Positions 33,693 through 34,234 of a stretch of 64,000 nucleotides of DNA are shown in pieces. A program made the translations under genes and the position numbers. Each line of letters begins with the position of its first letter. Position 1 is the stretch's first letter. Source of the stretch: Escherichia coli (lineage in GTDB: Bacteria; Pseudomonadota; Gammaproteobacteria; Enterobacterales; Enterobacteriaceae); the NCBI RefSeq assembly GCF_030013205.1, contig NZ_CP122649.1. One strand, given 5' to 3'. The notes under the pieces were generated by a model, which searched no databases, was not told the origin of the DNA, and saw nothing but the letters and a program-made list of their open reading frames with translations.

Positions 33693-33712
33693 GAGGGGGG
33701 TCGCCCCCCCTC
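33693..33712. terminator. GC-rich hairpin at hok 3' end
   Basis: GAGGGGGG-TCG-CCCCCCCTC directly after the hok stop. Confidence 0.5.
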
Positions 33713-33718
33713 TTTCAG

Positions 33719-33877
33719 CTACTTACCGGATTCGTAGTCCATCACAGCCGACACTTCCCGTGTACCGTCTTTCAGTCTCAGTTCGCAGAGCGAATTGCGC
33801 GTAAGCCAGGTGAATATCAACAGCGTAAGACATACTATCAATACGCACAAAACAACGGGTTGGTTCGGCAGTTTCAT
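33719..33877 (-). CDS. hok: Hok/Gef-family type I toxin
   Basis: 52-aa [52 protein letters not shown] closely matches Hok. Confidence 0.9.
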
Positions 33878-33884
33878 GGCCTTC

Positions 33885-33960
33885 TTCTCCTTGCATTTAA
33901 GCGGGTAAGAGGCTACTCTGAATGTGACTAGCATACAGGGGCCTCGGGTTAATTTGAAAA
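33885..33960 (+). ncRNA. sok: putative Sok-like antisense RNA (position approximate)
   Basis: Placed by analogy with hok/sok loci; promoter and ends not resolved. Confidence 0.25.
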
Positions 33961-34234
33961 AATTACTCGGGGCTTTCTGCTTTTTACCACAGTCAAACAG
34001 TGAATCTGCTGGCTGGGGCAAAAGCCTCCAGCACCGAGGTTATTATACCACCCCGCCCCTTTTAAACGAACAGATCGTTCTCCTAAATATTTAATAAGTA
34101 AGTATTTCAGGTTTTGCTGCTTCGCAGGCTGTAACAGCAGGTGTCTGACGTAATAACTGATTAAACAGACGGATTCGAATCTCAACACTCAACGACGCCA
34201 GCTCGCCTGTTCCCCCGCTTCTTTCCGGCTGTAA

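Follow-up and report, generated by a model that had tools for sequence, protein, structure and literature searches.

Closest described loci and the locus in this window

The closest described systems are hok/mok/sok (parB) of plasmid R1, together with the R1-type loci of IncF plasmids, and hokC(gef)/mokC/sokC on the chromosome of E. coli K-12. In R1, experiments showed that what counts is for translation to reach the hok start region, rather than the Mok peptide, and the model of the R1 mechanism summarised in the same paper is the one that we adopted as the best explanation of the locus described here (PMC9841398). In E. coli K-12, the annotated sokC (16952..17010) overlaps the first 9 nt of mokC. 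As the R1-type reference, we used a locus on p1081 (L002 below). Its Hok matches the sequence of R1 Hok that served as the query.

We analysed a hok/sok-type locus within a 64,000-nt stretch of E. coli DNA (the window), and our main reading, to which we assign a probability of roughly 85%, is that an IncHI1 plasmid here carries an ordinary type I toxin-antitoxin module, an intact hok/mok/sok, for which an R1-type mechanism is the best explanation. The module is ordinary because public records already annotate it as such. The locus is thus already known, with its toxin gene in those records, its family curated in Rfam and Pfam and its architecture of the mokC type.

Toxin gene and extent of the locus

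The minus strand of the window carries a 52-aa Hok/Gef toxin gene at 33877..33719, with its start ATG at 33877..33875 and its stop TAG at 33721..33719. Its product matched Pfam HOK_GEF (PF01848) with an E value of 5.4e-19 and 68 bits against a cut-off of 22, and shared 73% identity with the R1-type Hok, both proteins being 52 aa long; by this match and this identity it is a small (~50 aa) membrane toxin of the Hok/Gef family. The initial annotation, which had proposed a 52-aa Hok-family toxin gene within a hok/sok-type locus, was borne out on both counts, and every sequence-level element is present and intact: the toxin, a mok-like frame with its own Shine-Dalgarno (SD) sequence, an antisense Sok gene at the homologous position, the tac/fbi closure and the terminator. 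The span that had been given to the feature, 33693-34021, proved too narrow, although the feature itself is real, for the locus runs further on both sides, with fbi and the terminator at 33665..33620 and the mRNA 5′ end and −10 box at 34035..34047. Its coordinates should therefore be widened to about 33614..34047. A chance origin of the locus is excluded, because its leader matches an Rfam family at E 4e-20 and related DNA occurs in 2284 plasmid records. The features, from the hok promoter to the terminator, are as follows.

34042..34047, minus strand: −10 box of the hok promoter (TATAAT), aligned column for column with the R1-type TATGAT
33614..34035, minus strand: full-length hok (mok-hok) mRNA of about 422 nt, whose 5′ end was placed by reference to R1 and whose 3′ end was set, to within about 5 nt, by the terminator
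34029..34035, minus strand: tac element (5′ GGUGCUG), which pairs with fbi in the MFE structure and in the RNAalifold consensus of 9 loci
34012..34032, minus strand: 5′ local hairpin, a candidate metastable structure that may sequester tac in nascent or truncated RNA, from the MFE structures of the 5′ domain and of truncated RNA
33968..33974, minus strand: ucb or anti-SD box (AGCCCCG), the partner of the mok SD region both in the MFE structure of the full-length mRNA and in the consensus
33926..33984, plus strand: putative Sok antisense RNA gene of about 59 nt, with its ends transferred from the annotated K-12 sokC by alignment
33942..33945, minus strand: mok SD (GAGG), invariant in all aligned loci and 7 nt upstream of the AUG at 33934
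33719..33934, minus strand: mok-equivalent frame of 71 codons plus stop, a 19-codon extension followed in frame by hok, from the open reading frame list and the R1-type alignment
33909..33913, minus strand: dcb (GCCUC), complementary to the mok SD region and paired with GAGGC in the Rfam RF01794 consensus structure as aligned here
33891..33919, plus strand: putative sok promoter (TTGCAT, 17-nt spacer, TACTCT), homologous by position to the segment that precedes sokC and the R1-type antisense sequence
33887..33892, minus strand: hok SD (AAGGAG), in the invariant block CAAGGAGAAGAAGGC
33719..33877, minus strand: hok toxin gene, 52 aa, from Pfam PF01848, the RefSeq annotation in R27 and the identity to R1-type Hok
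33693..33712, minus strand: GC-rich 3′-UTR hairpin, GAGGGGGGG-CGA-CCCCCCTC, directly after the hok stop and paired in the MFE structure
33659..33665, minus strand: fbi element (UGGCACC), the complement of tac, immediately 5′ of the terminator in every intact locus
33620..33655, minus strand: intrinsic terminator hairpin and U-run of the hok mRNA, from a terminator scan, with covariation in 7 of 11 pairs (helix 10)

Distribution and plasmid neighbourhood

The window belongs to an IncHI1 (R27/pHCM1-type) resistance plasmid and is collinear with pHCM1, and with R27 save a few rearrangements. Over 601 bases, the locus is 99.8% identical to R27 (NC_002305), pHCM1 (NC_003384) and about 200 other large conjugative plasmids, and the plasmid records number 2284 with related DNA and 203 at ≥99% identity. 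None of the plasmid records listed is identical at 100%, pHCM1 and the others listed all standing at 99.8% over the 601 bases. The single difference of the locus from R27 is synonymous and lies at 33776, in hok codon Arg34, which is AGA in the window and AGG in R27. In R27 and pHCM1, RefSeq labels the gene "type I toxin-antitoxin system Hok family toxin" and gives a single 52-aa coding sequence; a base-level map of the module for the IncHI1 family, with the Sok ends, the mok frame, tac/fbi and the terminator, is the useful product of this work. A search of the literature available to us for experimental work on an IncHI1 hok found none, its only returns being author-name matches ('Hokamp') or PCR-typing lists.

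Several observations concern the surroundings of the locus. Relative to R27, the window lacks a 533-bp stretch at 31187, carries a segment of ~2.4 kb with corA/ysgD in inverted orientation (36166-38612), at whose ends no long inverted repeats were found, and lacks Tn10 (tetB, IS10/ISVsa5) at 42045-44772, where DUF6012 and HNH-motif genes stand instead that are 100% identical to pHCM1. A 98-aa open reading frame at 52397-52693 on the minus strand occupies the aligned position of an R27 gene annotated as a RelE/ParE-family toxin, and is directly followed by a gene for a 393-aa hypothetical protein (51207-52388, minus strand) that is not a small HTH antitoxin; together they might form an unusual toxin-antitoxin pair. 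The gene next to hok on its upstream side, at 34235-34840 and in the same orientation, encodes a 201-aa hypothetical protein with a weak, sub-threshold match to the 2-TM family DUF5676. Since no terminator was predicted between this gene and the hok promoter, read-through into hok is conceivable.

Ends and folding of the hok mRNA

Both promoters of the locus were placed by homology and not by scan, for a sigma-70 consensus scan reported neither that of hok nor that of sok, while the same scan detected the terminator. The hok promoter was missed because its −35 is poor. In R1, TATGAT has been shown genetically to be the hok −10 box at −12 to −7 (Le Rhun et al., PMC9841398), and because TATAAT of the window aligns with it, we placed the hok +1 at 34035 (GGUGCUGG...). 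TAnnAT is conserved at this position in 13 related loci. At the other end, the intrinsic terminator follows directly after fbi and is present in all intact relatives. The initial annotation had also pointed to a GC-rich 3′ hairpin, and this indeed lies at 33712..33693, adjoining the stop codon, and is conserved with covariation in 9 loci (helix 9). As a candidate terminator, we rejected this hairpin; it has no U-run, and the conserved fbi and terminator lie 30-90 nt further on.

The folding of the full-length mRNA was examined in the window sequence by itself and across related loci, 11 of which were fetched through their proteins; 9 full-length mRNAs, that of the window included, entered an RNAalifold consensus. 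In the MFE structure of the window mRNA alone, nucleotides 1-7 pair with fbi (z = -4.5, ends paired), and the consensus of the 9 diverged mRNAs has the same tac/fbi closing stem, with all 7 pairs kept in 9/9, so the 5′ and 3′ ends of the mRNA are predicted to be joined by the long-range pairing of tac with fbi. The window copy carries both compensatory changes in this stem, C3:G>U3:A and U7:A>G7:U. For the whole closed structure, 97% of cells were paired versus 36-51% with slid partners, and double changes occurred in 15 pairs versus 0-5 when slid, values that were reached in 0 of 500 shuffles, in a test that is partly circular, since a single alignment served both to derive the consensus structure and to count its pairs. 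What this analysis shows is the closed structure with its covariation, together with the sequence elements and their homology to known loci. Within it, the mok SD is sequestered by the upstream box (GCC.CG pairs with CG.GGC); these 5 pairs of helix 3 are invariant and give no covariation signal. In the consensus fold, the hok SD has its partner in the 3′-terminal part of the hok coding sequence (helices 5-7), with which the hok SD/AUG region also pairs in the MFE structure of the window sequence.

We also folded a 3′-truncated mRNA and the 161-nt 5′ domain. In both MFE structures, the mok SD stayed paired and the tac/ucb stem did not form, and a fold with tac/ucb enforced was about 10 kcal/mol worse. 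The window sequence does fit the Rfam consensus structure with its tac/ucb and SDmok/dcb stems, at the cost of several non-canonical pairs. Because folding of truncated RNA did not reproduce the tac/ucb conformation, refolding of this mRNA into the active form is proposed on the strength of homology. Likewise, the 5′ local hairpin would hold tac back by analogy with the description of R1 (PMC9841398).

Antisense Sok RNA

An antisense Sok RNA had been expected at this locus but had not been located, and alignment with sokC now places a putative gene for it at 33926..33984 on the plus strand, which is presumably transcribed. The gene aligns end to end with K-12 sokC and overlaps the first 9 nt of the mok-equivalent frame. 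In the predicted fold of the RNA (-21.3 kcal/mol, z = -4.7), a 5′ tail of 10 nt is followed by a long hairpin and a U-run. The RNA is the complement of mRNA positions 52-110, a stretch that contains the mok SD and AUG; to judge by its sequence, this is a cis-encoded antisense gene over the mok start. The putative sok promoter is weak, with 6/12 consensus positions. Its −10, TAnnCT, is kept in 5/6 aligned loci, and K-12 sokC has CACTCT.

The hok leader (34036..33875, minus strand) scored 89.1 bits with Rfam RF01794 'sok' (gathering score 59, E 4e-20), and no other Rfam match in the 64-kb window passed its gathering score. Despite the name of the family, its 157-nt model describes the hok/mok leader, not the antisense Sok of ~60 nt, and the match, which is to the hok-sense strand, stops at the hok AUG. 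What it demonstrates is homology of the leader; the strand of matches of this kind should not be taken for the orientation of Sok.

The mok frame

The expected mok frame was found to start at an AUG at 33934..33932 with the SD GAGG and to run for 71 codons. This AUG lies 57 nt upstream of the hok AUG, as against 58 nt in R1-type loci, and it is therefore in frame with hok. The locus thus has an upstream mok-like frame with its own SD that is open through the hok start, in the in-frame variant seen in mokC. The same extension occurs in >30 distinct 71-aa protein clusters, down to 62% identity, and its variation tracks a small RNA hairpin and not the peptide sequence, which fits the finding from R1 that translation, not the Mok peptide, is what matters. 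A TAA immediately ahead of ATG 33896 closes the +1 frame that R1 uses for mok, and in this locus that frame lacks an SD. We accordingly rejected as mok the 57-codon open reading frame in this frame (33896..33723), which begins right after the TAA, has no SD and starts 38 nt downstream of the conserved SD-AUG. In the initial annotation, the long in-frame extension upstream of hok had been judged probably not to be the real start. This holds for the TTG at 34021, but the last 19 codons of the extension are the mok equivalent, and these, from AUG 33934, are probably translated.

A recent preprint on Hok diversity notes that prediction of Mok coding sequences is not trivial and did not attempt it. 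Our literature search for statements of a mok in frame with hok returned nothing relevant, and the K-12 annotation was used instead; judged from it, the in-frame architecture is not new, as mokC and hokC of K-12 share it. In a survey of four loci from viral contigs, which is enough to show that both frame states recur and too few for frequencies, mok was in frame in L020 and in the +1 frame in L018 and L021, and L019 had no obvious AUG.

Across the loci compared, mok toggles between an in-frame state (the window, L020 and K-12 hokC) and a +1 state (L002, L018 and L021) via single-nucleotide indels just after the mok AUG. The +1 state may be the derived one, as is suggested by the R1-type locus, where the hok frame upstream still reads the 'extension' peptide (LDNIRIASY...). 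Such toggling agrees with the established view, in which what counts is that ribosomes cross the hok start region and not the Mok peptide. With mok in the hok frame, ribosomes that start at the mok AUG of this locus must make an extended Hok, here of 71 aa, as the annotation of MokC in K-12 also has it. A bolder proposal would be that, in the in-frame class, 'mok' is no separate gene and Sok directly gates this 71-aa form as an active toxin, alongside or instead of the 52-aa form, so that the indirect control in R1 through a separate overlapping frame would be a special case derived by a 1-nt insertion; we consider this rather unlikely and offer it tentatively.

Proposed mechanism and alternative explanations

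On the R1 model, the module would operate as follows. A weak promoter would give a stable hok mRNA of about 422 nt, in which tac at the 5′ end pairs with fbi at the 3′ end and the upstream anti-SD box holds the mok SD, so that the full-length RNA would be untranslatable and would not bind Sok. Slow 3′ trimming would remove the terminator and fbi, and the leader would then refold, after which ribosomes could initiate at the mok AUG (33934) and continue through the hok start region, and the mok start would also be open to Sok. In plasmid-bearing cells, the short-lived 59-nt Sok would pair with the mok start region, block translation of mok and hok and trigger decay of the duplex. In plasmid-free cells, Sok would decay first and Hok would be made and would damage the inner membrane, and plasmid-free segregants would die as a result. 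For the transcription of Sok, the 3′ processing, the refolding, the differential stability of the RNAs and the killing, we follow the R1 paradigm. Such a module would help large IncHI1 multidrug-resistance plasmids (the R27/pHCM1 family, in Salmonella Typhi and E. coli) to persist without selection, and is one more annotated addiction module.

An intact locus could also owe its main benefit to something other than post-segregational killing, namely protection against phages by abortive infection, or help with establishment soon after entry by conjugation. The R27 copy is about 12 kb away from the gene for the MobH relaxase and about 16 kb from mobI, in a neighbourhood of many small genes including DUF905, DUF957 and DUF3085 open reading frames, and the related loci L004, L012 and L014 stand just downstream of psiA, all of which would suit such roles. 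These roles would, however, use the same molecular mechanism, they and plasmid stabilisation are not mutually exclusive, and the three look the same in sequence; as the main benefit, we think them improbable. Still less probable, in our judgement, is that the locus is a silent relic that travels with a conserved backbone, comparable to the chromosomal hok copies of E. coli K-12 that IS elements have disrupted. That 203 plasmid records match at ≥99% identity may simply mirror conservation of the backbone, IS186-type elements interrupt both the sister lineage described below and K-12 hokC on the 3′ side of hok, and the sok promoter is weak relative to the consensus. Against this, nothing in the window copy is disrupted, its open reading frame, both SDs, terminator and Sok hairpin all being intact, and the compensatory substitutions in the tac/fbi stem are specific to the window lineage, which implies selection on the pairing.

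There is hardly any likelihood that the 100-codon open reading frame from TTG 34021, or another long form, is a real gene for a larger Hok-domain protein. The frame is open over 100 codons and gene callers sometimes call forms of 95-111 aa, but the TTG lies 15 nt from the predicted mRNA 5′ end, within the tac hairpin and without an SD, and further upstream the frame shows no conservation at the protein level, and L018, L020 and L021 have stop codons there that close it in the hok frame. We therefore rejected this open reading frame as a gene.

Comparison with R1-type, related and K-12 loci

The initial annotation had proposed an alignment with R1 hok/sok as a check, and the alignment, run against the R1-type locus, gave the same order of elements with Sok at the same position. 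R1 hok/mok/sok and the IncF R1-type loci share with the window the succession of −10 box, tac, ucb, mok SD/AUG, dcb, hok SD, GC hairpin, fbi and terminator, and belong to the same Rfam family. They differ from it in three respects. Immediately behind their mok AUG, the R1-type loci carry an additional nucleotide (ATGCTTAG, versus ATGC-TAG in the window), which puts R1 mok in the +1 frame (a 70-aa Mok), whereas the frame in the window is that of hok. Their tac/fbi elements are GGCGCUU/AAGCGCC as opposed to GGUGCUG/UGGCACC, and their leader between tac and ucb is longer than that of the window. The four loci from viral contigs, comprising the pnd-like L019, the hokC-like L020 and L021 and the R1/F-like L018, have the same leader architecture and toxin family as the window, with toxins 38-64% identical to the window Hok.

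The closest sister lineage (P0006, represented by L010 and L011) has a hok 83% identical to that of the window and occurs on >1000 contigs, on plasmids of about 225-280 kb. In L010 and L011, the locus is interrupted (at about 905-960) within the GC-rich hairpin just after hok, which moves fbi and the terminator away. The interrupting sequence shares its end (CCCATAAGCGCTAACTTAAGGGTTG) with the IS186 beside K-12 hokC (L003), and the 3′ hairpins of hok loci look like a recurrent hotspot for insertions of the IS186 type.

In its frame, the window resembles hokC(gef)/mokC/sokC of K-12, where mok is likewise a 19-codon in-frame N-terminal extension and mokC and hokC share a stop codon, as do the mok equivalent and hok here. 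The extension of K-12 MokC aligns with that of the 71-aa frame (ML.T.RV...K.KEK.AMK), and Sok overlaps the first 9 nt of mok in the sokC locus and in the window alike. The toxins themselves are only about 36% identical over 69 aa. K-12 hokC is chromosomal and lacks fbi and the terminator, with IS186 inserted 20 nt after its stop, whereas the copy in the window is complete.
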